Below are positions 9,885-61,992 of a stretch of DNA of 64,000 nucleotides, piece by piece. Numbering within the stretch: position 1 is the stretch's first letter; each line of letters begins with the position of its first letter. The stretch lies in IMG/VR virus record IMGVR_UViG_3300019487_000031, positions 1 to 64,000 of that record; one strand, 5' to 3'. The DNA is from a virus. The translations under genes and the position numbers were made by a program. Under the pieces are notes generated by a model. That model made no database searches. It saw only the letters and a list, made by a program, of their open reading frames with translations, and was not told where the DNA came from.

Positions 9885-11405
9885 ATGAAATTTAATGAAA
9901 ATGCAACAAAAGAAGAAGTTGTTAATTATATGGGCAAAAAAGCCTATAAACAATCCCCTAAAGAAGAACTAATTTTTGCCGTTTTAACCACTTTCATTGA
10001 AGATTCTTATTATGAAAACAAGACAGATCGTCTTGACCGAATTAAGTCTTTAGTTAAGGCCGCTGATCCTAAATTCGTTGCTAAGTTGGCAGTATACGCT
10101 AGAACAGTATTTCATATGCGGTCTGTGTTCGCCGTTTTAATTGGCGAACTTTCCAAAATTCACAAAGGAACTAGTCTTGTACGAAAAGCTATTGTACAAG
10201 GCGTAACTAGAGTAGATGATATTACTGAGATTGTTTCTTATTTAGGAGTTACTAATCCAATTCCTAATTCTGTAAAAAAAGGAATTAACGAGGCTCTTAA
10301 TAAATTCGATTCATATCATTTTGCGAAATATAGAGGAGAAAATAAAACTGTAAAACTAATAGATGTTGTTAATTTAACTCATCCTAAAGCTACTAATCCT
10401 AAAACGTCTGAAGCCCTTCGAAAACTCGTTAAAAATGAATTAAGAAATACAGATACTTGGGAATCCAAAATGTCAGGCGGACAAAGTGCTGCCTCAACTT
10501 TTAATGAATTGTTAGATTCTAATAAATTGGGATACATGGCACTTCTTAGAAATCTTCGTAATATCGCAAATACCGGAGATACTAATTTAGTTAAAAAAGT
10601 CGCAGCTATGATTAGTAATACAGAACAAGTTAAAAAATCTAAGCAGCTGCCTTTTCGTTTTCTGTCAGCTTTTGAAGCCTTGGAACAAAATACTGATTCT
10701 ACTGGGGTAGTTTTTGAAGAGGATTCAGATAATACTAATATTCTAAAAAATGCTGTAGAAGAAGCTCTAATGGTTTCTATTCAAAATATTCCACTTTTAA
10801 GTGGCAGAACGCTTATTTTGTCTGATAATTCAGGCTCAATGCATGGAGATAAAGGTGGAAATTCTTTAACTTCAGCCTATTCATCTAGAACTACTGCATC
10901 TATTGCGAATTTGTTTGCCGTATTATATTGGATGAGATCTGATAATACTTTTGTTGGACTTTTTGGCGATAGATTAATCACTCCGAAATTGGACCGAACT
11001 AAGTCAATTTTAACAAATTATAAAACTATTGCCCAATCATCTGGAGACTGTGGTTCTGGAACAGAGAGAGGAATTTTTGATGCCATAGAACTCCTTTTGC
11101 AGGAGAAAAAGAAAGTTGAACGGATTGTTATTTTTTCCGATTGTCAGGTTGGTGATGGTTGTGATTGGTATGACGATTATGGAAATAGAGGAGATAACTT
11201 TAATAAACTACTTAAGAAGTATCAAGAATTTAATCCTAACGTAAAAGTTTATACCGTGAATCTAAAAGGGTATAATAATGAAATGACTTCTCAAGGAAAT
11301 GTAATGAGACTTACTGGATGGAGTGATAAGATTTTTGATATTATGGAAAGAAATGAAATTGCCCCTGAAACTATGGTAAAAGAAGTTGAAACTATTGAAC
11401 TATGA
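9885..11405 (+). CDS. rsr: Ro60-like protein with a TROVE domain and a C-terminal vWA domain (MIDAS DxSxS)
   Basis: N-terminal FAVLTTFIEDSYYE and AKLAVYARTVFHMR resemble the Ro60 TROVE region (FLCFGSEGGTYY). C-terminal LILSDNSGSMHG is a vWA MIDAS motif. Length is 506 aa, typical of Ro60 orthologs. Confidence 0.65.
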   Translation: MKFNENATKEEVVNYMGKKAYKQSPKEELIFAVLTTFIEDSYYENKTDRLDRIKSLVKAADPKFVAKLAVYARTVFHMRSVFAVLIGELSKIHKGTSLVRKAIVQGVTRVDDITEIVSYLGVTNPIPNSVKKGINEALNKFDSYHFAKYRGENKTVKLIDVVNLTHPKATNPKTSEALRKLVKNELRNTDTWESKMSGGQSAASTFNELLDSNKLGYMALLRNLRNIANTGDTNLVKKVAAMISNTEQVKKSKQLPFRFLSAFEALEQNTDSTGVVFEEDSDNTNILKNAVEEALMVSIQNIPLLSGRTLILSDNSGSMHGDKGGNSLTSAYSSRTTASIANLFAVLYWMRSDNTFVGLFGDRLITPKLDRTKSILTNYKTIAQSSGDCGSGTERGIFDAIELLLQEKKKVERIVIFSDCQVGDGCDWYDDYGNRGDNFNKLLKKYQEFNPNVKVYTVNLKGYNNEMTSQGNVMRLTGWSDKIFDIMERNEIAPETMVKEVETIEL

Positions 11406-11529: not shown

Positions 11530-11979
11530 ATGATAAAACTTTGTACTGATTGTAATCAAGAAAAACCAGCAACTAAAGTTTTTTGGTATAAAAATACCGG
11601 AGGAAAACTAGGTTTTCGTTCTACTTGCAAAATTTGCACCAATAAAGATAATATAGCTAGGCATAAAAAATCTTCTAAAAAATGGGAACTAGCCAAACGA
11701 AACGGCGTTCTAAAAAGAAATTACGGAATTACACTGGAACAATATAATAAAATGTTAATGGAACAAGAAAGTTCTTGTTTAATCTGCCATACAAAAAGTT
11801 CTGGAAGAAAAAATAGTAAGCGTTTATGCGTCGATCATTCCCATAAAACCGGAAAAGTTAAAGGACTTTTATGCTCAATTTGTAATTCAATAATTGGATT
11901 TATCGAAAGGACTAATAATCCTTTGTTAACCGTAGAAAATATAGTAAAATACAGGGATAAATTAGATGAAAAATCTTGA
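11530..11979 (+). CDS. Endonuclease VII-type homing endonuclease (T4 gp49-like) with an N-terminal zinc finger
   Basis: CLICH...LCVDHSHKTGKVKGLLCSICNSIIG matches the endonuclease VII signature (C-x2-C ... DHDH.TG.VRGLLC..CN). Paralogous to 16944, 35198 and 37193. Confidence 0.75.
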   Translation: MIKLCTDCNQEKPATKVFWYKNTGGKLGFRSTCKICTNKDNIARHKKSSKKWELAKRNGVLKRNYGITLEQYNKMLMEQESSCLICHTKSSGRKNSKRLCVDHSHKTGKVKGLLCSICNSIIGFIERTNNPLLTVENIVKYRDKLDEKS

Positions 11980-12451
11980 CGTTCATTTTAGCTCTAAATC
12001 TGATGATTGGGCTACGCCGCAAGATTTTTTTAATAAAGTAAATGCCGAATTCGGTCCTTTTGATTTGGATGTTTGTGCTAGCCATGATAATTTTAAATGT
12101 CCAAAGTATTTAACTTCAAAAGGGTTTTTTGATAGTGCGTGGGGATGGATTTCGTCCGCCGATGGTTTAAATGGAGAATGGGCAGCTATCTCTAAACGCG
12201 CTTGGTGCAATCCCCCTTACGGACGACAGATAGGAAAATGGATAAAGAAAGCTTATGAAGAATCACAAAAAGGGTGTCTTGTTGTCGCTTTGCTTCCTGC
12301 TAGAACTGACACTCGTTATTTTCACACTTACATCTACGGACAGGTCAATGTGGAAATTAGGTTTATTCGCGGCAGGCTTAGATTTGGTCGCGCTACCGCT
12401 AGCGCACCTTTTCCCTTAATGCTCGTCATCTTTCATCCGAAAAAGGACTAA
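11966..12451 (+). CDS. dam: Phage-type DNA N6-adenine methyltransferase (Dam family)
   Basis: AWCNPPYGRQIGKW carries the (D/N)PPY catalytic motif. N-terminal WATPQDFF and DLDVCAS are typical of the phage Dam family. Confidence 0.8.
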   Translation: MKNLDVHFSSKSDDWATPQDFFNKVNAEFGPFDLDVCASHDNFKCPKYLTSKGFFDSAWGWISSADGLNGEWAAISKRAWCNPPYGRQIGKWIKKAYEESQKGCLVVALLPARTDTRYFHTYIYGQVNVEIRFIRGRLRFGRATASAPFPLMLVIFHPKKD

Positions 12452-12452
12452 A

Positions 12453-13088
12453 ATGTCTGAAATTCTAGTAGAATTACAAGATTGGCTTGGAAATGACAGA
12501 CAAATCGCCGAAGCCGCCTGGACCCGCGGCTACGATAAATCCAAAAGAGATACAAAAACCGATGAACAAGTTTCTATATTAGTTCGAAGATTAGCACAAG
12601 AAGGTCATTCTGTTCCGTTTGAATCGGTTGTATTGCGTTTCTGGATTAGAATGCCTATATTTGTTGATAGACAGCATATGCCGCATCGTATAGGCCCCCA
12701 CAGCGGATTATCGGACCGTTATAGAACAATGCCCACGGATTACTATGATATACCTGAAAATGTTGATGAAATTCTTTTAAAAATTGAGAATCAGCATCCA
12801 AATATTTTTCCAACAATCGAAACCCATAATAAGACATGGAATATGTTTGATGCATATTATGAATCTTGTGAAATTGCAATAAATAATTATAAATTATCAA
12901 TTAACAAATTAAAATATTACGAAAAACAAAATATTATTACAAACGAGGAGTTTAAAAGAGTCCGTGAAGTTTTACAAGGCCAGCTCCCCTTATCGTGTTT
13001 TACCGAAAGAACTACTATTTTTAACTTGCGGTCCTTTTCTAATTATATTAGATTTAGGATTAAGGCATCGGCACGCCGATTTAGCTAA
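12453..13088 (+). CDS. thyX: Possible flavin-dependent thymidylate synthase (ThyX-like)
   Basis: PHRIGPHSGLSDRY resembles the ThyX RHR..S....S.RY motif, and N-terminal AEAAWTRGYDKSK resembles the ThyX AAR.CY region. Weak. Confidence 0.35.
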   Translation: MSEILVELQDWLGNDRQIAEAAWTRGYDKSKRDTKTDEQVSILVRRLAQEGHSVPFESVVLRFWIRMPIFVDRQHMPHRIGPHSGLSDRYRTMPTDYYDIPENVDEILLKIENQHPNIFPTIETHNKTWNMFDAYYESCEIAINNYKLSINKLKYYEKQNIITNEEFKRVREVLQGQLPLSCFTERTTIFNLRSFSNYIRFRIKASARRFS

Positions 13089-16943: not shown

Positions 16944-17144
16944 TTGGCTGTAAGATATCGCAGCCCGGGAATAATGAATAGAAGTAATTACTCTAAACAT
17001 TTATCTGTTGATCATAATCATAAAACTAAACAAGTCAGAGGTTTATTATGCACCTCTTGTAATTCTGCACTTGGATTATTTAGAGAATCTGCTATAGTTT
17101 TAAAGGGCGCAATTAATTACTTGAAAAAATATGAGAAAAAATAA
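16944..17144 (+). CDS. Mini endonuclease VII-like protein (66 aa)
   Basis: LSVDHNHKTKQVRGLLCTSCNSALG matches the endonuclease VII core. It sits immediately upstream of the intein-containing primase-helicase. Confidence 0.55.
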   Translation: MAVRYRSPGIMNRSNYSKHLSVDHNHKTKQVRGLLCTSCNSALGLFRESAIVLKGAINYLKKYEKK

Positions 17145-20142
17145 AATGGAATATATTCGACTTTCAGAAAATTATAATATCAATTCTTTAATTCCAGTTT
17201 CAAGTTCTCCCTACGGTTTTATTAAAAATAAAGAACTTCCTTATTTTATATCCATGCTTAAATACAATGAAGAGCATTTTAAAATTTGGAAAAAAACTAA
17301 ATCTTTGAAAGGAATTTCTGGTGGTCTAACTAATAAAATTTGGTTTGATTTTGACAGCCATGAGGAATTATCTCTTTGTTTTTCCGATGCTGTAAAATGT
17401 GTAAAATTTCTTAAAACTTTAGATATTCCAGAAGAATGTATACAAATTTCCTTTTCAGGTAATAAAGGTATTGGACTTATTATTGAGACTGATACTGATT
17501 TTACAATCGAAGATATTCGAGCTTTTTGTATCGGGGTTTATAAAGAATTAACTTTGAAAACTTTTGATGTTAAAATGTACGATCACCAGCGCATTTTTCG
17601 TTTAGTTTTTACGAAACATGAAAAAACCGCGCGATATAAAATCCCACTTTCCTTAGAGGAACTCGAATTACAAAATATTCCTCAAATCCTTTCATTCGCT
17701 GAAAGTTTGGAACATTTTAATATTGACGATACCTTGGCTTATTACCAACCTTATAAAGTTACTAAAAAACTAACGGACAAAATTAATTCTTATAAAACCT
17801 TATCCCTTAAGAAGGATAAAACTAATTTATCCCCTATTGCGGATAATTTCATTGATTATTCTAATAAGCCTAAAGATTGGCGAAATTGTAAGTGGGCGAT
17901 TTTACAAGGACATTTTGCTGGTGGAGAACGTCACCAAGCTTTAACTATTATTGCTGCCACGGCTCGCGGATTAGGATATGATCGTGAAACCGCTTATTAT
18001 CTCTGTAAATCCGCTATTAAGAAACAAGCTAGACTTCATTCTCAAGAAGAATTTGATACTGACGAAGTATGGGAAAATATTCTAGAAAGCATTTATGCTC
18101 CCGATTGGAAGGGCGGCCAATATTCTTGTAAAACTGATTTATGGCTTCAAAACTATTGTGAACATCTTGGCGTTCATAAATGTCAAAATGATAAAGCGGT
18201 TAATCCCACAATTCAAATTGAAGAAGCTTATGGGCTTTTCAAAGACTATGCTGAAAATATTGACAAGCTAACTATTAAAACCGGCATTAATCCAATTGAT
18301 CATAATCTTAGAATGACTATTGGAATGTTGGTAGGACTTGTGGCTCCTGCGGGCGTCGGCAAATGTCTTGGAAAAGGTACTCCGATTTTAATGTATGATG
18401 GGACTATTAAAAACGTTGAGGATATTCACTCAGGCGATTTGTTAATGGGAGATGATTCAACTCCTCGTAAAGTATTAAGTACTTGTAGAGGACAAGAAAA
18501 TCTTTATGAAGTTCAACAAGAAACCGGAATGAACTATGTTGTCAATGAATCACACATTCTTTCATTAAAAGGTTCCTGGAAAACTAATAATAAAAGATTA
18601 AAATATATCCAATACGGAAATATTGTTGATATTGAAGTTAAAGAATATTTAAATAAAAGTAAGCAATTTAAACAATACATGAAAGGATACAGAGTTCCTA
18701 TTGAATTTCCTGAAAGTAACTTAGAACTTTCTCCATATTTTCTAGGCTATTGGATTGGGGATGGAACTACCGATAAATGCGAAATCACATTTGGCAAAAC
18801 TGATATTAATCATATTAAATGGTTTGAGAAGTTTGCTTTAGAAAATAATTGTTTTGTTACCAAATATCAAGATCGCGAATGTATGCGATTAAATTTTTCC
18901 GGAGCAAGAGGAGATAATATTGTTGCGAATAATCTTCCTAGTAATAAAACTATTCCTGAAAAATATCTTGTTAACTCTAGAAAAAATCGTTTAGAGCTAT
19001 TAGCCGGTATAATTGATTCAGATGGTCATTATAATAAATCTAGAAATATATATGAAATTATTACTAAATATGAAGAATTAGCTAATCAAATTCAAAATTT
19101 AGCATCACTTCTGGGATTTAGAAGCAAAATCTCTCTTAGTGAAAAATACTGTATTTATAAAAATGAAAAAAGAACTGGGTTGTATTATAGAGTTATTATT
19201 AAGGGTAATAACTTATATGAGATTCCGTGTAAAATTGAAAGAAAAATTTCTAGACCTATAGAACAACAAAGACATTATGATTTAAGTAAAGTTGAAGTAG
19301 TTTCAAAAGGCGTTGGGGATTATTACGGGTTTGAAATTGATGGAAACAAACGATTCGTTTTAAAAGATGGCACTGTAACGCATAACACCTCAATTTCCCT
19401 CCAAGTGCTTAATACTATGTCGAAAAATGACGAGCTTTGTTGTTTCTTCAGCTTTGATATGTTCCACGCTCTTGTATTCCAAAAGCTTGTTCAAAAACAC
19501 TTCCAAGTTGATCCAGAACATATTTTCGATTCCTTTAAAGCCAACCCTGAATATGGTCAACAAGTTATTGAACTACTTCAACAGGAATACAAAAATGTAG
19601 AGTTTTGTTTTGATGCTGGTCAAACCCCAGATCAAATTGCGCAAACTATTAAAATGGTTGAAGAGAAGCGCGGAAAGAAAGTTCGATTCATTGTAATTGA
19701 TTATAATGAGCTTGTACTATCTGATAAGTCAGATCCTACTGCGGCTTCCGCTTATGTTATTCAAAAGCTTCGTGAAATTGCTAATACTCAAAATCTTTGT
19801 GTTCTAGTATTGTTACAGCCTAACAAAATATCCGGCAATCCCTCAGAAGAGATTAATTCTTATCATGCGGCTAAAGGTTCGTCCGCAATCTCTCAAGCCG
19901 TTTCTATTATGCTAGGTGTTAATCGTCCAGGCTATGATCCAAAATATCCAGAAGATGATAAATTCATTACAGTTAATTGTTTAAAGAATCGAATGGGTAA
20001 GTTATTCTCAGTAGATTTACATTGGAATGGATTAACTGGAACCGTTCGAGAATTAACAGTTGAAGAAAAAGGTCATTTAAGAAATGTTCTAGCCCGGAAG
20101 GAAGAAGAGAAGAATAAAAAAGGCGGAGGCTGGATTGAATAA
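17131..20142 (+). CDS. Bifunctional primase-helicase (AEP/prim-pol-like N-terminus plus DnaB-family helicase) interrupted by an intein
   Basis: N-terminal WFDFDSHEE (DxD) and ISFSGNKGIG (AEP motif II-like). C-terminal DnaB-like motifs (FIVIDYNELV...). Walker A APAGVGK|TS is reconstituted after intein removal. Confidence 0.8.
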   Translation: MRKNKMEYIRLSENYNINSLIPVSSSPYGFIKNKELPYFISMLKYNEEHFKIWKKTKSLKGISGGLTNKIWFDFDSHEELSLCFSDAVKCVKFLKTLDIPEECIQISFSGNKGIGLIIETDTDFTIEDIRAFCIGVYKELTLKTFDVKMYDHQRIFRLVFTKHEKTARYKIPLSLEELELQNIPQILSFAESLEHFNIDDTLAYYQPYKVTKKLTDKINSYKTLSLKKDKTNLSPIADNFIDYSNKPKDWRNCKWAILQGHFAGGERHQALTIIAATARGLGYDRETAYYLCKSAIKKQARLHSQEEFDTDEVWENILESIYAPDWKGGQYSCKTDLWLQNYCEHLGVHKCQNDKAVNPTIQIEEAYGLFKDYAENIDKLTIKTGINPIDHNLRMTIGMLVGLVAPAGVGKCLGKGTPILMYDGTIKNVEDIHSGDLLMGDDSTPRKVLSTCRGQENLYEVQQETGMNYVVNESHILSLKGSWKTNNKRLKYIQYGNIVDIEVKEYLNKSKQFKQYMKGYRVPIEFPESNLELSPYFLGYWIGDGTTDKCEITFGKTDINHIKWFEKFALENNCFVTKYQDRECMRLNFSGARGDNIVANNLPSNKTIPEKYLVNSRKNRLELLAGIIDSDGHYNKSRNIYEIITKYEELANQIQNLASLLGFRSKISLSEKYCIYKNEKRTGLYYRVIIKGNNLYEIPCKIERKISRPIEQQRHYDLSKVEVVSKGVGDYYGFEIDGNKRFVLKDGTVTHNTSISLQVLNTMSKNDELCCFFSFDMFHALVFQKLVQKHFQVDPEHIFDSFKANPEYGQQVIELLQQEYKNVEFCFDAGQTPDQIAQTIKMVEEKRGKKVRFIVIDYNELVLSDKSDPTAASAYVIQKLREIANTQNLCVLVLLQPNKISGNPSEEINSYHAAKGSSAISQAVSIMLGVNRPGYDPKYPEDDKFITVNCLKNRMGKLFSVDLHWNGLTGTVRELTVEEKGHLRNVLARKEEEKNKKGGGWIE
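18364..19386 (+). mobile_element. Intein (341 aa) with a LAGLIDADG homing endonuclease domain, inserted in the helicase P-loop
   Basis: Starts CLGKGTPILMYDG (Cys1, block A) directly after GVGK. Contains LAGIIDSDGHY. Ends VTHN followed by Thr(+1). Splicing would give the canonical GVGKTS Walker A. In frame with the host ORF. Confidence 0.8.
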
Positions 20143-20707
20143 AGATATGTTTAATTTTGAAGTTCAAAAACTGGATTCTGAAGTAGAAAAACTTATTAAT
20201 AATATGACAAAACAAGAAGAAAGTATTTTACTTGAACAGTTATCAGAACTTATTTCTAGAGGACTTATTGTTATTTATAAAGAAGAACCCGTGTTAACAC
20301 ACGAAGAAAAAGATGGAACACATACTGTTAAAATTTCTTCAGCAGTCAGATTAGTTCTTAAAGACCACGAATATATTCAAAGGATTGAAAAAGAAAATGC
20401 CGAATTAAAGGCCCGCATTCAAGAAAATGAAAGAAGTTTAACATTGCGATACTAGATTCCTTCTCGACTCAGATGCAGTCGAACAAGATTTGCGCTCGAC
20501 GCCATCTTGGCGAGTTGAGGTAATGCGTGCCTACGGATGCGCGGATCTTTGGCCAACACCTAACGGACACCATGTCCATCTAAGACTCGTCACTCTGAAT
20601 TCTGGCGATAATCCAATCCCTAGCAGTCAGGCGTCGAGCCGCGCACACAAGATGAGCGTGGTTCTCAACGACTATGCTTACAAACTCATTGCTACGGTTG
20701 TCACCCC

Positions 20708-21316
20708 ATGAACAAAACAGCATCAAAGCCAAATCCAGTTTTTACAGTAGGGCATTCCAATCACTCGCTTGAACATTTTTTGGAGTTACTCAAACACCAT
20801 GAAATTACCACTGTGGCGGACGTGAGATCTCAACCGTACAGTCGATTTAGACCAATCTTTAATCGCGAAGCACTGGAGTCGGAGCTTAAAAAAAATCAGA
20901 TCGCATATGTTTTTCTGGGTAAAGAACTCGGTGCTCGTTCAAACGATTCGACCTGCTATGTGAACGGCAAGGTCAGCTACGAGCGACTTGCAAAGACATC
21001 CTTATTTAAAGATGGGATCAACCGAATTCTCAAAGGAGCAAAGAAGTTTCGCATTGCGTTGCTCTGTGCCGAAAAAGTCCCTCTCGACTGCCATCGCACC
21101 ATTCTTGTTAGCAGATACTTGGTAGAACGCGGAGTTGATGTGAGCCGTATTTTATCTGACGGTACGTTGGAAGCGCACGAAGACACGATGAGTAAACTTC
21201 TGGCAGAAACAGGAATTGGTTCCGCTCTTTTTGATTCAAGATCCGATCTTCTCGCAAAAGCCTATGAAGAACGAGGTAGTCAGATAGCATACAAATTGCC
21301 TTCAGAACCGAAGTGA
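20708..21316 (+). CDS. DUF488-family protein (copy 1) in GC-rich island 2
   Basis: The N-terminus VFTVGHSNHSLEHFLELL...TTVADVRSQPYS is the DUF488 signature. Local GC is much higher than in the flanks. Confidence 0.55.
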   Translation: MNKTASKPNPVFTVGHSNHSLEHFLELLKHHEITTVADVRSQPYSRFRPIFNREALESELKKNQIAYVFLGKELGARSNDSTCYVNGKVSYERLAKTSLFKDGINRILKGAKKFRIALLCAEKVPLDCHRTILVSRYLVERGVDVSRILSDGTLEAHEDTMSKLLAETGIGSALFDSRSDLLAKAYEERGSQIAYKLPSEPK

Positions 21317-21801
21317 CGAGAGGATGTGCGATGAAGATTTTTACAGTTGGATTCACCAAAACATCTGCTGAGTCTTTCTTTTCTCGCCTAAAGGAAAATG
21401 GCGTGCGGCAACTTCTCGATGTAAGACTGAACAATGCTTCGCAGCTTGCGGGTTTTGCTAAGAAAGATGATTTGCGGTTTTTTCTGAAATCCATTTGCGG
21501 AATTGAGTACGATCACGGGCCAGAACTAGCCCCGACTTCTGACATGCTCGATGAGTACAAAAAAAGGGGGGGTGGGCGCGCTTTCCACGCTCCTTGGAGA
21601 AACTTTTTGAGTTATAAATGTCAAATTTGCAATAAGCCCTTTCCTGATCAAGTTTTCTATGTTAAACTTCCTGGTCATGAATCTCCAGTTTGTGAGCATA
21701 TAGAACAAATCTTAGTTCATGAAGAAAAACAAAAACAGTTCCAAAAAAGTTTAAAGGATCCCACAAAAGGTTTTTATGAATATAGAGAAAAGTTTGAATG
21801 A
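21313..21801 (+). CDS. DUF488-family protein (copy 2) with an AT-rich C-terminal Cys/His extension. The junction lies at an A7G7 homopolymer tract
   Basis: MKIFTVGFTKTSAESFFSRL...LLDVRLNN is DUF488-like. The composition switches from GC-rich to AT-rich at 21559-21572 (AAAAAAAGGGGGGG), followed by CQICNK...HESPVCEH. Confidence 0.5.
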   Translation: MTRGCAMKIFTVGFTKTSAESFFSRLKENGVRQLLDVRLNNASQLAGFAKKDDLRFFLKSICGIEYDHGPELAPTSDMLDEYKKRGGGRAFHAPWRNFLSYKCQICNKPFPDQVFYVKLPGHESPVCEHIEQILVHEEKQKQFQKSLKDPTKGFYEYREKFE

Positions 21802-23326
21802 TCGTTTAATATATGGTAAAGCTTCTCAATCTCATATCGTTTCTATTGAATGTAAAGACGATAAGGCTATTCTTTTCTTAGAAACCCCCCAAGGTATAGA
21901 AACCAAAGAAGTTCCTAATAGATATTGGCTTCTCTCGCCCAAGCCTTATTACCCAGCCAAATGGCGTAAAATGGCCGGTAATCAATTCTTTCAGTATGGC
22001 AGGCAGTTCTCCTCACGCGAAGCCTTCCAACGCGCTAGAAGCTATTATAAGAAGAATGGCGACGTTTTTAGCGTTTGGAACGAAAAGGAAAGCTTCATGG
22101 TTCTTTTCGGCCATAGCTATTACCGTAATCTCGATATTAAGGATGTTTCTATATTATCCTTCGATATTGAAACTACATCATTAGATCCTAATGAACCTAA
22201 TGCTAAAGTTCTTTTAATCTCTAATACTTATCGTAAAGGCGGAAAAGTAGTTAGACAGCTATTTGCATATGATGATTACGATTCTCAAGAAGAAATGATT
22301 AAATCTTGGTGCAAAGTAGTTCGAGAATATAATCCTTCTATTTTATGTGGTCATAATATTTTCACCTTCGATTTGTATTATCTTAATGAAATTATGAAAC
22401 ATCATGGCGGATTAAAATTGGGCCGCGACGGATCTAATCTTCATTTTTCTAATTACGAATCCCTATTTCGCAAAGACCAAACCCAAAACATTTCATATAA
22501 AAAGGCTTTTATATATGGGCGTGAAATTTGCGACACTCTTTTTCTTTCTATAAAATTTGATATTGTTCAAAAGAAATACGATTCTTATGGATTGAAACAT
22601 ATTATTAATAGAGAAGGATTGGAAGATCCGAATCGTGTTTTTTATGATGCCGAACAAATTAGATTTAAATATCAAGATCTTAAAGAATGGGAAAAAATTA
22701 AAGAATATTGTAAAGGCGATTCGGATGATGCGTTAAAGCTTTTTGATTTAATGGCTCCTCCTTTCTTTTACCTCACGCGCTCAGTTCCTAAGTCTTTTCA
22801 GGAAATCATTTGCCGCGCCACGGGTTCGCAATTAAATTCTATGTTTGTTCGTAGCTATCTTCAAGAAGGGCATTCAATTCCCAAAGCTGATATTGGAAAA
22901 GAGTTTACTGGGGCGATTTCTTGGGGAAATCCGGGCATTTATTCTAATGCCATTAAATGGGATGTGGCGTCTCTGTATCCTTCTATTTGTTTACAATATG
23001 AGATTTATCCTAAACAAAAAGATCCTCAAAAGAACTTCTTGAAAATTTTAGAATATTTTACAAAAGAACGGCTTTCAAATAAAAAGATTGCACAAGAACA
23101 AAAAAGTAAATATCATAAGGATATATCTGAAGCCCAAAAACAAGTTTGTAATTCTGCTTATGGGATGTTAGCAACGAACGGATTAAACTTTAATAATTTT
23201 GAACAAGCTCAATTAATTACAAAACATGGCCAAGAAATTTTATGTAAGGCGATTAAATGGGCAACAGGAAAAGAATATGAAGAATGGAATCCAGAAGAAA
23301 ATGAAGAAGTTGAAACCGAAGATTGA
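21776..23326 (+). CDS. Family B DNA polymerase, N-terminal part (3'-5' exonuclease plus palm motifs A and B)
   Basis: Exo I SFDIETT. Motif A KWDVASLYPSI (DxxSLYPS). Motif B KQVCNSAYG (KxxxNSxYG). The ORF ends about 50 aa after motif B, with an acidic tail. Confidence 0.8.
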   Translation: MNIEKSLNDRLIYGKASQSHIVSIECKDDKAILFLETPQGIETKEVPNRYWLLSPKPYYPAKWRKMAGNQFFQYGRQFSSREAFQRARSYYKKNGDVFSVWNEKESFMVLFGHSYYRNLDIKDVSILSFDIETTSLDPNEPNAKVLLISNTYRKGGKVVRQLFAYDDYDSQEEMIKSWCKVVREYNPSILCGHNIFTFDLYYLNEIMKHHGGLKLGRDGSNLHFSNYESLFRKDQTQNISYKKAFIYGREICDTLFLSIKFDIVQKKYDSYGLKHIINREGLEDPNRVFYDAEQIRFKYQDLKEWEKIKEYCKGDSDDALKLFDLMAPPFFYLTRSVPKSFQEIICRATGSQLNSMFVRSYLQEGHSIPKADIGKEFTGAISWGNPGIYSNAIKWDVASLYPSICLQYEIYPKQKDPQKNFLKILEYFTKERLSNKKIAQEQKSKYHKDISEAQKQVCNSAYGMLATNGLNFNNFEQAQLITKHGQEILCKAIKWATGKEYEEWNPEENEEVETED

Positions 23327-23817: not shown

Positions 23818-24361
23818 AGTTATAGGCCCAAAAGATAAAAAGAAATATAAAAATTATATTAATGTTACGTCTTCAGGTTCAGACAGGTTTAAATTCCTTT
23901 CTCCATTTTTTCTCGGGCCTGTAAAACTTTATAATAATATTTATTCTAAAAATATGGAAAATGCCTGGCAATTTTCTAAAGTTTATAAAGAACATTTAGA
24001 TTTAAATGGTAATCCTTCAGAACAATATTTTAAATGGGCTAAAAAAGGTTGGAACGATTCTTGGGCTCATCGATATCCTATGGGAAAAAATAGAAAGCCT
24101 GAATATTCTTATTGGGATGGAAAGAAATTAGATTATTTACAAGGCCGCCAACAGATTTATATTCCTTTGTATTCTTCTTTAGTTGAAAAAACTGGTCAAT
24201 TTACTGATTTGGTTAACCGAGCAAAACAAAAAGAAGATATAATTATATTTGATTATGATGGTTATTCGGATTATGATACACTTGAAGAAGTTACTAAGAA
24301 TCCTAATCGTAAAATGGGCCATGGATTTGTTTTAGCTTTATGTATAATTTCACGCTTATAA
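23810..24361 (+). CDS. Divergent NADAR (DUF1768)-like protein in the polB-interrupting cassette
   Basis: RFKFLSPFFLGPVKLYNNIYSKNMENAWQFSKV resembles the NADAR N-terminal signature (F.FLSNF.....G..Y.S.EHAYQA.K). The later LVEKTG is compatible with the NADAR C-terminal half. Weaker than the NADAR at 30139. Confidence 0.35.
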   Translation: MIKVIGPKDKKKYKNYINVTSSGSDRFKFLSPFFLGPVKLYNNIYSKNMENAWQFSKVYKEHLDLNGNPSEQYFKWAKKGWNDSWAHRYPMGKNRKPEYSYWDGKKLDYLQGRQQIYIPLYSSLVEKTGQFTDLVNRAKQKEDIIIFDYDGYSDYDTLEEVTKNPNRKMGHGFVLALCIISRL

Positions 24362-25008
24362 ACTGCGACACCGATTCTATTACTATTAGTAAACCCGATA
24401 ATTCCCCTTTCTCCGTTCAAGAACAACAAAAGCTTTTAAAAGAACTTAACTCTTTATTTCCTGAAAAGATTTCTTGGGCGGACGATGGGTATTTCCAAAA
24501 GGTTATTGTATTCAAGGCTAAGAATTATATTTTATGGGATGGGGAAAAGATTAAGTCCAAAGGTTCGGCTCTAAAGGATGGTAAAAAAGAACAAGCTCTT
24601 AAAGATTTTATTCAAGAAACAGTTCAAGCGATTTTAAACGATAAAGAAAACTTTCAAGAAATCTATCATAAATATATTAAAGAAGCTTTGGATATTAAAG
24701 ATATTAAAAGATGGAGTTCCAGAAAAACCCTAACACATAAGACTTATAGTTCTTCTCGTCCAAATGAAACAAAAGTTATTGATGCGATTAAAGGGACTGA
24801 TTATAAAAATGGTGATAGAATCTGGACATTTTTTAAAGAAGATGGTTCTTTAGAACTTGTGGAAAATTTTAATGGTGAATATGATAAAATGGTTATGGTG
24901 AAAAAAGTATTCACGACTAGTAAATTATTTGCTTCTGTATTGGATCATAAGATGATATACTTGAACTATTCTTTGAAGAAAAATTTAGAGGCTCTAGAAA
25001 AACTATGA
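24340..25008 (+). CDS. Family B DNA polymerase, C-terminal part (motif C plus KKRY/thumb)
   Basis: INCDTDSITI is motif C (DTDS) 10 aa from the ATG. KAKNYILWDGEKIKSKG is the KKRY-like motif. Confidence 0.75.
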   Translation: MYNFTLINCDTDSITISKPDNSPFSVQEQQKLLKELNSLFPEKISWADDGYFQKVIVFKAKNYILWDGEKIKSKGSALKDGKKEQALKDFIQETVQAILNDKENFQEIYHKYIKEALDIKDIKRWSSRKTLTHKTYSSSRPNETKVIDAIKGTDYKNGDRIWTFFKEDGSLELVENFNGEYDKMVMVKKVFTTSKLFASVLDHKMIYLNYSLKKNLEALEKL

Positions 25009-25710: not shown

Positions 25711-26499
25711 ATGAAATCCCTACCAGATAATATTAAAACTCTTCCTGAACTATCTTCCCAATCTATTCTATTGTCCTATAGAGGTTCCATTGCTCATAAT
25801 CTATATCAACCTTCCAATGAACCCAATTCTATTGATGATATTGATTTAATGGGAATTTGTGTTCCTGAAGTTTCTTATTACTTCGGCTTAGATAAATTCG
25901 CCCCCCGAGATACAAAAGAAATGTTTATTGATGAATGGGATATCGTTTGTTATGAACTTAGAAAGTTTGTATATCTTTTAATGAAGGGAAATCCTAATGT
26001 CATTTCAATGCTTTATTTAAAGCCGGAACATTATTTAGTAAAGCATCCAGCGGCTGAACTTTTAATTGAAAACAGAGCTTTATTTAATTCCCACGAGATT
26101 TATCATTCATTTATTGGCTATGCCAAAGCTCAACTTTATAAAACGGAACATATGGTCTTCAAAGGCTATATGGGAGAAAAAAGAAAGAAACTTGTTGAGA
26201 AGTTTGGATATGATACTAAAAATGCCGGGCATCTTATTAGATTAATGATGATGTGTAATGAATGGTTAGTTGAAAAAAACTTTGAGGTTTATCGGGATTT
26301 TGACCGTCAATTTCTTTTAAATATTAAAAACGGGATATACTCTTTAGATCAGATTAAAGAAATGGCGGCTAATTTATTTACAAAAGGAGAAGCTCTTTTT
26401 AAAGCACAACAAAAAACTATTCCAGAAACGGTTGATACTAAAGCTGTAAATGAATTGTTATTGGAAATGTATAAGAAAATTGATTGGGTGAAATTATGA
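25711..26499 (+). CDS. Pol-beta-superfamily nucleotidyltransferase (KNTase-like: NTase N-domain plus helical C-domain)
   Basis: SYRGSIAHNLYQPSNEPNSIDDIDLMGI fits the GS...DxD nucleotidyltransferase motif. The C-terminal half is all-helical. Confidence 0.4.
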   Translation: MKSLPDNIKTLPELSSQSILLSYRGSIAHNLYQPSNEPNSIDDIDLMGICVPEVSYYFGLDKFAPRDTKEMFIDEWDIVCYELRKFVYLLMKGNPNVISMLYLKPEHYLVKHPAAELLIENRALFNSHEIYHSFIGYAKAQLYKTEHMVFKGYMGEKRKKLVEKFGYDTKNAGHLIRLMMMCNEWLVEKNFEVYRDFDRQFLLNIKNGIYSLDQIKEMAANLFTKGEALFKAQQKTIPETVDTKAVNELLLEMYKKIDWVKL

Positions 26500-27065: not shown

Positions 27066-28055
27066 ATGAACTTTCTTCCGAAAAATGATGGGATAGATCA
27101 TATTAATATTTATTCCCAAGGTCAAACCAAGATCGGCCAACTCCTTTCTAATTTCGCACATACCCCTTTTCGCGTTCCTTTAATGGGAACTTTCCAATCC
27201 GTCGAGGGGTTTTGGTATTATTGTTTAATCGGGAAAAAGGAATTAAAAAATCTTGTTGGATTTGAAGCTAAGCAATTCGGGAAACGGCATTTAAAAATTA
27301 AAGATACTGTTGATTCTAGATTACTGGAAATTGCCTATAGAGCCAAATTAAGAGATAATCTTTACATCATTCCAAAATTGCTATTGATGCTTCATTCTAA
27401 GTTACAAATTGCCCACTATTACGTTTATGGTGGTAAAGCGGTAACCCCGAAAGAATTTCAATGGATCGCTGAGTTATGGAAAGAAATTCCTATTAACATT
27501 CTTCCTACAAAAGATAAAGTTTTTAGAGCTTTAACTTATTTCAAACCACAACAAACCAAAGCTATTATCATAGGCCAAGATCCGTACCCGAATCCAGAGG
27601 ATGCTTGCGGGCTTGCTTTTTCTGTAGAACATAATAAACCCCCCGCTTCTTTAAAAAATATCTTTAAAGAACTTAAAACCGATTTAAATATTAATTCCCC
27701 CAAAACGGGAAATCTAGAGCCGTGGGCGAAACAAGGAGTTCTTCTTTTGAATTCAGTTCTTACTACGGAGAAAGGAAAATCCGGAGCGCATAAAAATATT
27801 GGCTGGGAAGAAATTACAACTAATACAATTCAAAAAGCTTTAGATTGTAAACAACCAATAGTTATTATCGCTTGGGGTTTTGACGCAAAGAAAAAGCTTG
27901 AAACTTTAAAATTACATGATAAAGTATTGGTATTAACGGGCGGTCATCCGTCCCCGTTAAATACTTCTGTTTCTTTTTTGGGCGGCAAATATTTTTCTAA
28001 GGCCAATGCATTTTTAAATACGAACGGGATTAAAGAAATTGACTGGAGATTATAA
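27066..28055 (+). CDS. ung: Uracil-DNA glycosylase (family 1) fused to an unrecognised 130-aa N-terminal domain
   Basis: AIIIGQDPYPNPEDACGLAFSV is the GQDPY water-activating loop, and GGHPSPLNTSVSFLGGKYFSKAN is the HPSPLS motif. The first 130 aa show no recognisable motif. Confidence 0.8.
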   Translation: MNFLPKNDGIDHINIYSQGQTKIGQLLSNFAHTPFRVPLMGTFQSVEGFWYYCLIGKKELKNLVGFEAKQFGKRHLKIKDTVDSRLLEIAYRAKLRDNLYIIPKLLLMLHSKLQIAHYYVYGGKAVTPKEFQWIAELWKEIPINILPTKDKVFRALTYFKPQQTKAIIIGQDPYPNPEDACGLAFSVEHNKPPASLKNIFKELKTDLNINSPKTGNLEPWAKQGVLLLNSVLTTEKGKSGAHKNIGWEEITTNTIQKALDCKQPIVIIAWGFDAKKKLETLKLHDKVLVLTGGHPSPLNTSVSFLGGKYFSKANAFLNTNGIKEIDWRL

Positions 28056-28377: not shown

Positions 28378-29502
28378 ATGAGAGAATATAAACACGCCAT
28401 TTTCATTGGCCGATTTCAACCGTTCCATAACGGCCATTACGAAGTCCTAAAACAGGCCCTAGAAATTGCCGACACGGTTCTTGTATTAGTCGGTTCTTAT
28501 AAAGTCTCTACAAATATTAAAAATCCTTTTACGTTTGAAGAACGAGTTCAAATGATTCAATCGGTTATTGATGACCGCACTTATGAATATCCTTCTCCAG
28601 ATCAAGCAGTAACTATTGGCGGGGAACTTTTAAAGCGCGTTAAATTTATCCCCGTTCGTGATCATTATAATAACGATAACTTTTGGATTACAGAGGTTCA
28701 GCATAAAGTTTCTGAATATGTAACTGAAAACGAAACAGTTGCATTAGTGGGAAATTATAAAGATGCAAGTAGTTATTATTTAAATCTTTTCCCGCAATGG
28801 GAATTTGTGCCCACAGAACAAAGTTCTAGGCTTTCCGCTACCCAAATCCGCACCATTCTTTTTAAACGCAGTTCTAAAATCCAAGACTTTAACCCATATC
28901 GTCCTGTAACTACCTACGATTCTTTACTTGATCAATCATACGAAAGCATGATTCCATTTAAAATTAATGAGTGGATGATTAAAAACTACTTTAAAACTGA
29001 AAAATACCATAAACACGTAGAAGAATACCAATTTATAGAAAAATATAAGGAACAATGGTCAAATGCTCCTTTTCCTCCCGTTTTTATGACCACGGATTGC
29101 GTTGTAGTATGCTCAGGACACGTTCTTGTCGTGGAACGCGGGTTCAACCCCGGAAAAGGTCAATTGGCGCTTCCTGGGGGCTTTTTAAAGCAAACTGAAG
29201 CTCTTGAGGATGGGGCTTTAAGAGAACTTAAAGAAGAAACGGGTATTTCTATAGATAAGCTAATATTAAAGAATTGTATTGCAGATAAGCGTATTTTTGA
29301 TTATCCTGGTAGGAGTTTAAGAGGAAGAACGATTACTCAAGCTTTCTATATTAGGCTTAAAGATGGGGCTCTTCCAAAACTTAGAGCCGGAGATGATGCT
29401 AATAAAGCAATATGGATTTCTTTAAATGAAGTATCTTCTAAAGAAGAACTGTTTTTTGAAGACCATGCACATATTATTAATTATTTCATTCGGAGAGATT
29501 AA
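28378..29502 (+). CDS. nadM: Bifunctional NMN adenylyltransferase / Nudix hydrolase (NadM-Nudix, phage NatV-like)
   Basis: IFIGRFQPFHNGH is the (H/T)xGH nucleotidyltransferase motif. The C-terminal Nudix box is LPGGFLKQTEALEDGALRELKEETGI (GX5EX7REUXEEXGU). Confidence 0.8.
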   Translation: MREYKHAIFIGRFQPFHNGHYEVLKQALEIADTVLVLVGSYKVSTNIKNPFTFEERVQMIQSVIDDRTYEYPSPDQAVTIGGELLKRVKFIPVRDHYNNDNFWITEVQHKVSEYVTENETVALVGNYKDASSYYLNLFPQWEFVPTEQSSRLSATQIRTILFKRSSKIQDFNPYRPVTTYDSLLDQSYESMIPFKINEWMIKNYFKTEKYHKHVEEYQFIEKYKEQWSNAPFPPVFMTTDCVVVCSGHVLVVERGFNPGKGQLALPGGFLKQTEALEDGALRELKEETGISIDKLILKNCIADKRIFDYPGRSLRGRTITQAFYIRLKDGALPKLRAGDDANKAIWISLNEVSSKEELFFEDHAHIINYFIRRD

Positions 29503-29646
29503 ATGAAGGGAGATTGTCCGGAATGTGGTTCTATGGAAGTTGATTTATATTTTTTAGGAGAAGGTCCTTATACTCCAGAATCTTTCTATTGGCGCGCCGA
29601 TTGTGAATGGTGCGATAATTATAATTCACAAGAAAACGAAGAATAA
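29503..29646 (+). CDS. Small zinc-ribbon protein (47 aa)
   Basis: MKGDCPECGS...RADCEWCDNY (CxxC...CxxC), placed between the NMNAT-Nudix and macro genes. Confidence 0.35.
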   Translation: MKGDCPECGSMEVDLYFLGEGPYTPESFYWRADCEWCDNYNSQENEE

Positions 29647-30152
29647 TGGGACTTGAATATAAAAAAATGTCTTTATTTGATGCGCCGGAAGGTTCAATTA
29701 TTGTCCATGCTTGTAATGCTCAAGGAAGTTGGAATTCTGGAATTGCTAAAGAATTTAAAGAAAGATATCCAAGATCTTTTCAACATTATGAAGAATATTG
29801 TAGATTAAATCCTCGCCATTTAAAAGTTGGACGAGGAAAATTACTTTCTTCAACTATAGAACATAAGCATAAAGTTGGTATACTTATTACTTCAAATAAA
29901 TACGGCGCAGAAAAAGATCCTAAAGAACTTATTAAAATTCAGACAACTCTAGCAATAAATCAACTTTTAGAAACTAATCTTGCCGCGCATGGACGAAATC
30001 CAAGCGTTAAAGGAATTATATATTCTAATAAATTTAATTCAGGACTTTTTAAAGTTCCTTGGAAAGAAACTGAATTGATTTTGACAACGGTTTTAAAACA
30101 CTATTCATGGATTACTTGGATAGTTTGCGATCCTAATCATGAGACAGACTGA
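29646..30152 (+). CDS. Macro domain protein (ADP-ribose binding/hydrolase)
   Basis: SIIVHACNAQGSWNSGIAKEF resembles the macro-domain N-terminal signature (VNAAN...GGGVDGAI). Confidence 0.65.
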   Translation: MGLEYKKMSLFDAPEGSIIVHACNAQGSWNSGIAKEFKERYPRSFQHYEEYCRLNPRHLKVGRGKLLSSTIEHKHKVGILITSNKYGAEKDPKELIKIQTTLAINQLLETNLAAHGRNPSVKGIIYSNKFNSGLFKVPWKETELILTTVLKHYSWITWIVCDPNHETD

Positions 30153-30651
30153 TAAATATCTTTTCTTTTATGGCGGGTTTTTAAGCCAATGGTATCTTTG
30201 TAAGTTTAATGATTGGTTACGTGATTATAATTGTGCGGAACAATGTATGATGGCTCAAAAGGCTTTACTTTTTGAAGATATTAAATCATTTGATTATATT
30301 ATGAAAGAAACCAACCCGGCTTTCCAAAAAGCACGAGGAAGAAAAATTGAGGGATTTAATCAAGAAAAATGGGATTTGTTTAAAGAAGCCATTGTTTGTA
30401 GTGCCAATTATTTGAAGTTTGCACAAAATAAAACACTTCGAAAGAAATTGTTAGATACTAAAGATTTAATATTGGTAGAAGCTAGTCCATATGATAAAAT
30501 ATGGGGAATTGGATTATCAGAAAATAATCCATTGGCAGATGATGAAAAGAATTGGAAAGGTCAAAACCTTTTAGGAAAAGTTTTAATGAAAGTTAGAGAA
30601 AGTTTAAAAAATGTAGATGAACAATTGAGTTCATTGAATAATAAGGAGTAA
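30139..30651 (+). CDS. NADAR (DUF1768, YbiA-like) ADP-ribose-processing domain protein
   Basis: YLFFYGGFLSQWYLCKF...CAEQCMMAQKA plus LKFAQNKTLRKKLLDTKDLILVEASPYDKIWGIGLS track the E. coli YbiA signatures (FYS..DDYGDFSNF...SEHYFQAQKF ... LLATAPAKLVEHTENDAYWGDG). Confidence 0.8.
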   Translation: MRQTDKYLFFYGGFLSQWYLCKFNDWLRDYNCAEQCMMAQKALLFEDIKSFDYIMKETNPAFQKARGRKIEGFNQEKWDLFKEAIVCSANYLKFAQNKTLRKKLLDTKDLILVEASPYDKIWGIGLSENNPLADDEKNWKGQNLLGKVLMKVRESLKNVDEQLSSLNNKE

Positions 30652-30653
30652 AA

Positions 30654-61916: not shown

Positions 61917-61992
61917 TGGTCTGGAATGCGGGAGTTGCACCCGCACTTCCCTGTCTCCAAAACAGGGCGATTACTAACAATCTCTATTCCAG
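61917..61992 (-). tRNA. tRNA-like gene with anticodon UGG (Pro) and an encoded CCA. The D-arm and T-loop are non-canonical
   Basis: Minus-strand fold: 7-bp acceptor stem CTGGAAT/ATTCCAG, anticodon stem CCTGT/ACAGG with loop TTTGGAG (U33, A37), T-stem GCGGG/CCCGC with loop TGCAACT, discriminator A, then CCA. The 5' end lies 7 nt downstream of a consensus -10 box. Deviations are A8, a weak D-stem and G55. Confidence 0.45.

Follow-up and report, generated by a model that had tools for sequence, protein, structure and literature searches.

What interrupts the ATP-binding loop of the primase-helicase gene carried by an uncultured phage? We analyzed a 64,000-nucleotide stretch of viral DNA (IMG/VR record IMGVR_UViG_3300019487_000031, positions 1 to 64,000), hereafter called the window, in which the Walker A motif of a primase-helicase is split by 341 residues. 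As set out below, the insert is very probably a class-1 intein with a LAGLIDADG homing endonuclease, which would be spliced from the P-loop of the primase-helicase and would home to empty sites. Coordinates are collected in Table 1. The first codon of the intein is TGT (Cys, 18364..18366) and the last is AAC (Asn, 19384..19386), with ACC (Thr) following at 19387. The insert starts with CLGKGTPILMYDG, contains LGYWIGDG and LAGIIDSDGHY, ends with GTVTHN, and is flanked by ...GLVAPAGVGK upstream and TSISLQVLN... downstream. A sequence-only reading of this DNA had placed a 341-aa intein at 18364-19386; a check of codons and translation found this placement, and the sequence strings given with it, to be exact to the base.

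Residue numbers depend on the start codon, and the sequence itself does not decide between two candidates. The open reading frame (ORF) encodes 1003 aa from ATG 17131 and 998 aa from ATG 17146. Both P0001, the gene call in the database (998 aa), and P0010, the homologue closest at the N-terminus, start MEYIRLSENYN, which corresponds to ATG 17146. In the 1003-aa numbering, the intein extends from codon 412 to codon 752, and its excision in silico leaves a product of 662 aa. These are the figures of the sequence-only reading (Cys412-Asn752), and they hold for ATG 17131; if ATG 17146 is used, the intein spans Cys407..Asn747 and the spliced product has 657 aa. In either case, removal of the 341 residues rejoins GVGK/TS (here and below, a slash marks the insertion bond). 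The protein junction then reads VAPAGVGK-TSISLQVLNTMSK, and the rejoined empty-site sequence of the window gene is CTTGTGGCTCCTGCGGGCGTCGGCAAA/ACCTCAATTTCCCTCCAAGTGCTT. No stop codon or frameshift interrupts the precursor ORF across 3 kb.

Table 1. Positions in the window of the precursor gene, the intein and its motifs, and the short ORF upstream
Feature	Position	Strand	Description
Precursor ORF	17131..20142	+	Primase-helicase split by the intein; from the ORF list; stop codon 20140..20142
N-extein	17146..18363	+	AEP-fold primase domain (~aa 1-200), helical PriCT-like region, start of RecA-type helicase; ends GVGK
Intein	18364..19386	+	341 aa, Cys1 to His340-Asn341, with nested LAGLIDADG homing endonuclease
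Splicing block A	18364..18402	+	CLGKGTPILMYDG; Cys1 is the first nucleophile
Splicing block B	18532..18567	+	NYVVNESHILSL; Asn61-Glu-Ser-His64, (Thr/Asn)-x-x-His form
First LAGLIDADG motif	18733..18774	+	PYFLGYWIGDGTTD; LGYWIGDG; Asp133 presumed catalytic
NKTIPEKY	18943..18966	+	Lys195, equivalent to PI-SceI Lys301
Second LAGLIDADG motif	18988..19032	+	RLELLAGIIDSDGHY; LAGIIDSDG; Asp220 presumed catalytic
Splicing blocks F and G	19309..19386	+	GVGDYYGFEIDGNKRFVL..DGTVTHN; penultimate His340, terminal Asn341; aligns with the PI-SceI C-terminus ...VVHN
C-extein	19387..20139	+	251 aa; begins with Thr+1; remainder of DnaB-like RecA-type ATPase domain
Short HNH ORF	16944..17144	+	66 aa from TTG or 56 aa from ATG 16974; outside the intein

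Three Pfam models matched the 341 residues above their cut-offs: Hom_end_hint (PF05203) with 71.3 bits (cut-off 32.1), LAGLIDADG_3 (PF14528) with 47.2 bits (cut-off 22.5) and Hom_end (PF05204) with 36.1 bits (cut-off 21.1). When all PDB chains were searched with phmmer, the best match was PI-SceI (1dfa, E 1.2e-16), followed by Prp8 inteins. The alignment to PI-SceI runs end to end (residues 1-341 against 1-454) and sets Asp133, Lys195 and Asp220 of the window intein opposite Asp218, Lys301 and Asp326 of PI-SceI, which we take to be the active-site residues of the endonuclease. An AlphaFold model, built on 79 aligned relatives, had a pLDDT of 96 and a pTM of 0.92. In a Foldseek search of the PDB, the top 11 matches were all PI-SceI (TM 0.76-0.82), the best being 1ef0/1vde (E 1.7e-26, TM 0.80). 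The Tli (Thermococcus) VMA intein, PI-PfuI and the Prp8 intein came next, with I-DmoI lower, and the matches to PI-SceI, PI-PfuI and I-DmoI support a duplicated alpha-beta-beta-alpha-beta-beta-alpha LAGLIDADG fold. Thus, the model resembles PI-SceI and Prp8 intein structures in its fold, and not a helicase insertion domain, which the sequence-only reading had considered as the alternative to a Hint fold. Collectively, the profile matches, the end-to-end alignment and the fold agree with its call of a LAGLIDADG intein.

To assess residue conservation, we counted over an alignment of 79 intein relatives. Among the splicing residues, Cys1 is kept in 76/79, Asn61 in 77/79, His64 in 79/79, His340 in 73/79 and Asn341 in 76/79; among those of the endonuclease, Asp133 is kept in 72/79, Lys195 in 76/79, Asp218 in 79/79 and Asp220 in 74/79. 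The window intein has the consensus residue at all nine of these key positions for splicing and cleavage. A His-Asn terminus is found in 70 of 78 relatives, and in the window His340-Asn341-Thr+1 (19381..19389) supplies what splicing needs at the C-terminal end. Intein blocks A, B and F/G, which the sequence-only reading had proposed to check, are all present with their splicing residues. In a MAFFT alignment, NESH of block B lies opposite NATH of PI-SceI.

Inteins of class 3 have no nucleophile at position 1; they carry instead a Trp-Cys-Thr triplet, in which the Cys occupies position 4 of block F. Block F of the window intein reads GVGDYYGF, with Asp at the class-3 Cys position. Because Cys1 is present and block F has Asp rather than Cys, we assigned the intein to class 1. 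A class 3 intein, like M. smegmatis DnaBi1, is ruled out on the same grounds.

Is the site occupied in related genes? The spliced host protein had 239 homologues at E <= 1e-5, and the best 120 were inspected. Of these, 117 are free of the intein, have ~640 aa (574-690 aa) and read ...APAGVGKTSISLQVLN... without interruption, and three contain intein domains: P0001, which is the window's own protein, P0040 and P0099. In the closest intein-free proteins (P0002, P0003 and P0004; 60-64% overall identity), GLVAPAGVGKTSISLQVLN is continuous, with flanks identical to those in the window. The site is likewise empty in 23/23 related loci of an independent IMG/VR sample, on contigs that are mostly 63-105 kb with a few shorter. 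At the DNA level, the empty site of the related locus L005 matches the window flanks at 39/45 and 30/45 bases, and that of L007 matches the left flank at 32/45. The inteins of P0040 and P0099 are homologous to that of the window and lie at exactly the same bond. This comparison with intein-free alleles, another check that had been proposed, bears out the placement of the insertion between the Lys and Thr of Walker A, as does the alignment of the rejoined junction with other ATPases described below. Among sequenced phages, there was no record of the host protein (best tblastn matches, 23-27% identity, over one half only). DNA similarity to these phages consisted of 58-113-base matches in the intein and the HNH core, and none of them is a related genome.

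We then asked what kind of protein is interrupted. The DnaB_C model matched the unspliced protein at residues 753-967 with 48 bits and the spliced protein at residues 382-626 with 63 bits, the latter match spanning the junction. The host also matched PHROG 19 'DnaB-like replicative helicase' (E 3.8e-30). The rejoined junction, APAGVGKTSISLQV, aligns through the Walker A motif GPESSGKTTLTLQV of E. coli RecA, and it aligns as well with the helicase domains of phage SPP1 G40P (3bh0) and bacterial DnaB (4nmn). The N-terminal ~400 residues gave weak family matches, among them PHROG 'primase' (E 1.4e-13). For the window N-extein itself there was no significant Pfam or NCBIfam primase match, the values for PF01896 (E 0.13) and PriCT_1 (E 0.1) falling below the cut-offs. 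Across 49 homologues, DNA_primase_S (PF01896) gave E < 0.01 in 14/49 (best E 2.2e-9), LigD_Prim-Pol matched in 12/49 and PriCT_1 matched in 4/49. A fold search supports the catalytic fold of archaeo-eukaryotic primases (AEPs) in the N-extein, and the AEP acidic triad, Asp68 and Asp70 (FDFDS) with Asp141 (YDHQR), is invariant across the 49 homologues. AEP motif II has the form sGxGxH, ending in His. In the window the motif reads FSGNKGIGL, with Gly for the expected His; P0040 has His (FSGRKGFHL) and P0002 has Ser.

These comparisons support the view, already put forward in the sequence-only reading, that the host is an AEP-fold primase fused to a DnaB-like helicase of superfamily 4 (SF4, RecA-type). 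Two points in its favor are the 63-bit DnaB_C match of the spliced protein and the PF01896 matches in 14 family members. The name DnaB, however, applies to the helicase domain only. The host had no match to the DnaB N-terminal domain (PF00772), and it scored 40.6 bits with TIGR00665, for which the cut-off is 385. Since that domain is missing and the score is so far below the cut-off, the host is, by its sequence, not a DnaB orthologue, and the insertion site is best described as equivalent to DnaB site b.

The host gene is also a mosaic. The part encoding aa 1-250 (17146..17900) is nearest to P0010 alleles, with 46-70% identity, and the part encoding residues 250-650 (17900..20139) is 80-96% identical to P0002/P0003/P0004 alleles. 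This pattern suggests old domain-level recombination inside the primase-helicase gene; with third codon positions ~50% identical throughout, none of these affinities is of recent date.

Where else do such inteins reside? When 5.8 billion proteins were searched with only the intein as the query, the closest protein was 47-49% identical, with no higher value on record; the listed matches were all <600 aa and P0001, P0040 and P0099 were not returned, meaning that this search is not exhaustive for long hosts. Relatives of the window intein occur in 697 sequenced-phage records, 285 of which are Mycobacterium phages. The best of them are full-length, 41-46% identical, and located in superfamily 2 (SF2) helicases of Bacteroides, Klebsiella, Vibrio and Salmonella phages, at the bonds GSGK/T, GGGK/T and GAGK/T. 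More generally, the N-flank ends in GK in 58 of the 75 informative relatives (78 aligned), and at the +1 position 57 have Thr, 16 have Ser and 2 have Cys. Related inteins are hosted by, among others, cellular DnaB (ARPxMGK/T), thymidine kinase, AAA, ResIII/SNF2, PhoH, KaiC-like and DnaA/IstB-like ATPases. Because the relatives share the Lys/Thr or Lys/Ser bond across many unrelated ATPases, the window intein is, as judged from these alignments, a member of a large clade specialized on this bond of Walker A motifs. A minority of relatives in this clade (e.g. P0169, P0170, P0185, P0189, P0136 and P0184) use a second register, in which the insertion lies 2-3 residues earlier, as in VGSSG/SGKST and GKPG/TGKTT.

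The location fits earlier surveys. DnaB is the most common bacterial intein host, its insertion point b being the ATP-binding P-loop (PMC4760082), and insertion between Lys and Thr is the 'classic' position of P-loop inteins (PMC5050341), so the description of the site as a known hotspot of the DnaB type holds. Inteins also occur in genes of crAss-like phages (PMC7886860).

Within the primase-helicase family, the three inteins have a mutual identity of 45-50%, and hence are no closer to one another than to inteins of other hosts (46-49%). A neighbor-joining tree unites the three with a bootstrap of 9 of 50, and as such does not decide between one invasion of the family and several. Phmmer and profile searches of all six-frame ORFs found no second intein of this family in the window.

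Given these features, we propose the following cycle. Translation would yield a precursor of ~1000 aa in which the helicase is inactive, its ATP site being split by 341 residues. Cys1 would perform an N-S acyl shift, and the hydroxyl of Thr+1 would attack the resulting thioester, such that Thr+1 would act both as the Walker A Thr and as a splicing nucleophile. Cyclization of Asn341 would free the intein, and an O-N shift would create a normal peptide bond and thereby restore GVGKTS, the finished primase-helicase having 657 or 662 aa. Once free, the intein would act as a site-specific endonuclease, cutting the empty Walker-A-coding site of related phages at co-infection, and repair would copy the intein gene into the cut allele (homing). 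As the insert blocks an essential catalytic loop, only its precise removal would be tolerated, and the element would thereby be retained. There is precedent for the first step: a P-loop intein, that of P. horikoshii RadA, has been shown to abolish ATPase activity until spliced out (cited in PMC6195587).

Splicing and DNA cleavage are predicted here from sequence and a structural model, and several observations weigh against the full cycle. The intein has no relative closer than the 47-49% noted above, and we found neither an intein-bearing donor nor a recently invaded pair. Identity to the closest intein-free alleles at third codon positions is ~50% and flat along the gene, despite the 80-96% protein identity of the helicase half, so that a recent invasion or a co-conversion tract finds no support. 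In the sibling P0099 (locus L009, 28..3000), the first LAGLIDADG motif reads LGYWLGNG, so that Asn replaces the first catalytic Asp, which likely reflects decay of the endonuclease in the same host family. Moreover, the length and specificity of the target cannot be read from PI-SceI, as the window intein lacks most of the DNA-recognition insert of that enzyme. The weakest step is the assumption that the endonuclease has kept its activity: its catalytic residues are unaltered in the window, yet P0099 has the Asn and few sites are occupied.

These same observations leave some room for a different reading, which we regard as possible but hold only tentatively. The intein may still splice while its endonuclease is inactive or its target has been lost. 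In that case it would be a passenger left stranded, passed on vertically and retained only since its imprecise loss would destroy Walker A. Such a passenger would account for a site filled in only 3/120 of the best homologues and 0/23 IMG/VR loci, for resident inteins whose divergence looks old rather than the product of fresh spread, for the Asn in P0099, and for synonymous sites with no sign of recent exchange with neighboring alleles. On the other hand, the window copy retains both LAGLIDADG aspartates, the Lys301 equivalent and the full endonuclease fold, and its endonuclease domain has not been reduced to give a mini-intein, the usual fate once inactivated. Low occupancy, furthermore, is what the homing cycle predicts even when the element is active, if its population is large and diverse.

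An idea that goes beyond homing between alleles concerns the breadth of hosts. The endonuclease might recognize Walker-A-coding DNA and jump among non-orthologous ATPases of co-infecting phages (SF2 helicases, DnaB, thymidine kinase, AAA+, PhoH and terminases), and the window intein could be an active, deep-branching member of the P-loop clade that came here by such an ectopic jump and not by spread inside a single gene family. Two observations bear on this idea: the bond is shared across host families, and the three primase-helicase inteins are no closer to one another than to those of other hosts, with a bootstrap of 9/50. We nevertheless consider it rather unlikely.

Still less credit is due to the idea that the intein is a conditional switch, in which redox state, metal ions or temperature would delay splicing and the primase-helicase would be activated only in some states of the infected cell, in the manner of the P-loop DnaB intein of M. 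smegmatis. Since the insert splits the ATP site, the precursor must be without ATPase activity; the intein has seven cysteines (1, 41, 139, 163, 173, 263 and 289), which in principle could form a trapping disulfide; and there is precedent at the same helicase site (PMC6195587). But nothing in the sequence supports regulation, the mycobacterial case is a class-3 mini-intein with a different mechanism, and nearly all relatives function without an intein, implying that the family needs no regulation of this kind.

It is very improbable that the insert does not splice, being an insertion domain or a dead remnant, and that the gene is a pseudogene or encodes a permanently interrupted protein. Splicing has been deduced here rather than observed, which is the one point in favor of this reading. 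However, all class-1 splicing residues are present, the frame is open over 3 kb, and the model folds like PI-SceI rather than like an accessory domain of a helicase. In addition, the exteins match intein-free alleles with 80-96% identity in the helicase half, a degree of conservation that implies purifying selection on a protein functional only with a rejoined P-loop.

Finally, we see virtually no chance that the junctions are an assembly chimera of a phage helicase gene and an unrelated intein gene, metagenomic though the window is: the insertion is not an assembly artefact, because the identical precursor protein is recorded in the jgi, lgn and ena sources and on two contigs and a piece from SRR7811987 (locus L004) shows 0 mismatches to the window over 10,342 bases; besides, both ends are in frame and exactly at the Lys/Thr bond, and P0040 and P0099 carry homologous inteins at the identical bond.

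A short ORF lies immediately upstream of the gene, ending one base before ATG 17146, and had been pointed out as a mini endonuclease VII and taken, with the intein, as a sign that the replication genes attract selfish elements. The match is genuine, in that the ORF hits Pfam Endonuclease_7 (E 2.6e-15), but it covers profile positions 36-82 of 82 only, i.e. the C-terminal HNH core. The ORF retains DHNH and CTSCN and is 40% identical to residues 96-148 of a 149-aa paralogue at 11530..11979. The first Cys pair and the missing N-terminal half were not seen in any upstream frame. No such ORF is found upstream of the gene in the intein-free loci L005, L007 and L011, nor in the intein-bearing L008; L009 and L010 include only 27 bases upstream of the gene and hence are uninformative. 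Collaborative homing of this ORF with the intein was considered and rejected, as the ORF is truncated and is missing both beside the intein in L008 and from intein-free alleles. The most plausible interpretation is a free-standing HNH gene, apparently of a homing nuclease, that is either truncated or minimal and was inserted separately; we found nothing that ties it to the intein. It might be active in a minimal form, given that short PHROG 'endonuclease VII' families exist (phrog_17507, 65 positions). The full-length paralogue (+ strand; Pfam 67.8 bits) adjoins genes for a Dam methylase (11966..12451) and ThyX (12453..13088).

The phage belongs to a lineage with genomes of ~85-90 kb. For its major head protein (gene at 62927..63922, - strand), sequenced phages offer one match only, at 27% identity, and its family B DNA polymerase (PolB) shows <=27% identity to the best sequenced-phage matches, which are from Salinibacter phages. 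Rfam searches at gathering thresholds found no structured RNA or group I intron near the primase-helicase gene. Downstream of it, a segment at 20490..21801 (+ strand) contains two adjacent DUF488 genes (20708..21316 and 21313..21801) and has a GC content of 0.40-0.41, compared to 0.30-0.35 in the flanking DNA. It separates the helicase and PolB genes, is missing from that place in L005, L008 and L009, and was probably acquired as a cassette. Ahead of the DUF488 genes, 250 bases (20456..20707) hold no convincing ORF and no Rfam match. The PolB ORF (21776..23326, + strand) encodes 516 aa, with the exonuclease and a partial palm (Pfam positions 122-202 of 453). In L008 (7223..9429), the polymerase is encoded by a gene of 500 aa with one of 235 aa next to it. 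The window may likewise encode the C-terminal part separately, perhaps in the ORF at 24340..25008 (222 aa, without a Pfam match), and a split polymerase appears normal for this lineage.

Further genes were noted on the + strand. An NMN adenylyltransferase-Nudix fusion (28378..29502), a Macro domain (29646..30152), NADAR (30139..30651) and NAMPT (30654..32021) together look like a phage module for NAD salvage and reversal of ADP-ribosylation (28378..32021). Modules of this type have been reported to counter NAD-depleting defense systems. The window also encodes a 506-aa protein with a TROVE (Ro60-like) domain (9885..11405; Pfam 81 bits), for which Rfam, at gathering thresholds, revealed no Y-RNA-like RNA. 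Further along are an RlaP homologue, i.e. a nucleotidyltransferase of an RNA-repair pathway (25711..26499), and a protein of 329 aa (27066..28055) in which an unassigned N-terminal half precedes a domain of the uracil-DNA glycosylase superfamily. A single tRNA-Pro gene (anticodon TGG; 61917..61992, - strand) lies amid structural genes.

The primase-helicase intein is an ordinary but clean example of a well-known insertion type. As P-loop inteins in replication ATPases, including those of phages, are well documented, it brings little conceptual change. Two things set it apart: it resides in an AEP-primase/SF4-helicase fusion from a phage lineage that is uncultured, and the intein itself is divergent. 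In practical terms, the annotation is corrected from a 1000-aa protein to a primase-helicase of ~660 aa plus a mobile element, and the AEP-primase/SF4-helicase fusion is added to the list of intein hosts. A divergent Cys1/Thr+1 intein (<=49% identity) with intact endonuclease residues is a candidate splicing tool or rare-cutting nuclease. The combination of an intact intein with many natural empty sites also offers a workable system for studying phage homing and the specificity of P-loop-targeting endonucleases.

How does this intein compare with known systems? Among solved structures, the best match by both sequence and fold is PI-SceI, the S. cerevisiae VMA1 intein (1vde, 1ef0, 1lws). In both, a two-motif LAGLIDADG endonuclease is nested in a Hint splicing domain, and the two have in common Cys1, the Asn-x-x-His of block B, the terminal His-Asn, and equivalents of Asp218, Lys301 and Asp326. 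The PI-SceI host, the V-ATPase A subunit, is also a P-loop ATPase, but both host and insertion position differ, and identity is ~20-26%. PI-SceI is 113 residues longer (454 versus 341), the window intein being without most of the DNA-recognition insert in the splicing domain. The +1 residue is Cys in PI-SceI and Thr in the window.

The closest inteins in sequenced phages are those of SF2 helicases, for example in Bacteroides phage BS162P1 ('helicase D10'), Klebsiella phages MEW1 and JD001 and Vibrio phage 1.009.O. These have the same ends (CLGKGT...TVTHN/T) and occupy the same bond (GxGK/T) as the window intein, even though their hosts are not orthologous to its SF4/RecA-type domain.

With respect to the host, AEP primase-helicase fusions of mobile elements (the PrimPol-PV1 supergroup) show the same order of AEP, PriCT-like region and RepA/DnaB-type ATPase; AEP followed by a helical PriCT region and a RecA-type helicase is a known primase layout in such elements (PMC5862659). 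Compared to these fusions, the window protein falls below the PF01896 and PriCT_1 cut-offs and has Gly for the motif II His. In a non-exhaustive literature search, an intein in a fusion of the AEP-DnaB type was not mentioned in PMC4760082, PMC5050341 or PMC5862659, and the word 'intein' does not occur in the text of PMC5862659.

With respect to position, the DnaB point-b inteins occupy the equivalent Walker A site in an SF4 helicase (PMC4760082), and the inteins of metagenomic DnaB proteins at ARPxMGK/T (P0122, P0127, P0134, P0135 and P0141) are 42-47% identical to that of the window. The window host differs in having an AEP primase and PriCT-like region where DnaB has its N-terminal domain, and it is a distant relative by DnaB_C (63 bits). 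The site-b intein studied in most detail, DnaBi1 of M. smegmatis, belongs to the class-3 mini-inteins and has no endonuclease (PMC6195587), unlike the class 1 intein with endonuclease described here. Finally, the TerL1-a inteins in the large terminases of mycobacteriophages represent the 'classic' Lys-Thr P-loop insertion in a phage ATPase (PMC5050341). The PHROG families matched by the window intein are terminase families that contain inteins. The TerL1-a host, however, is a packaging ATPase from another family than the replication protein considered here, and the similarity of its intein to that of the window is lower.

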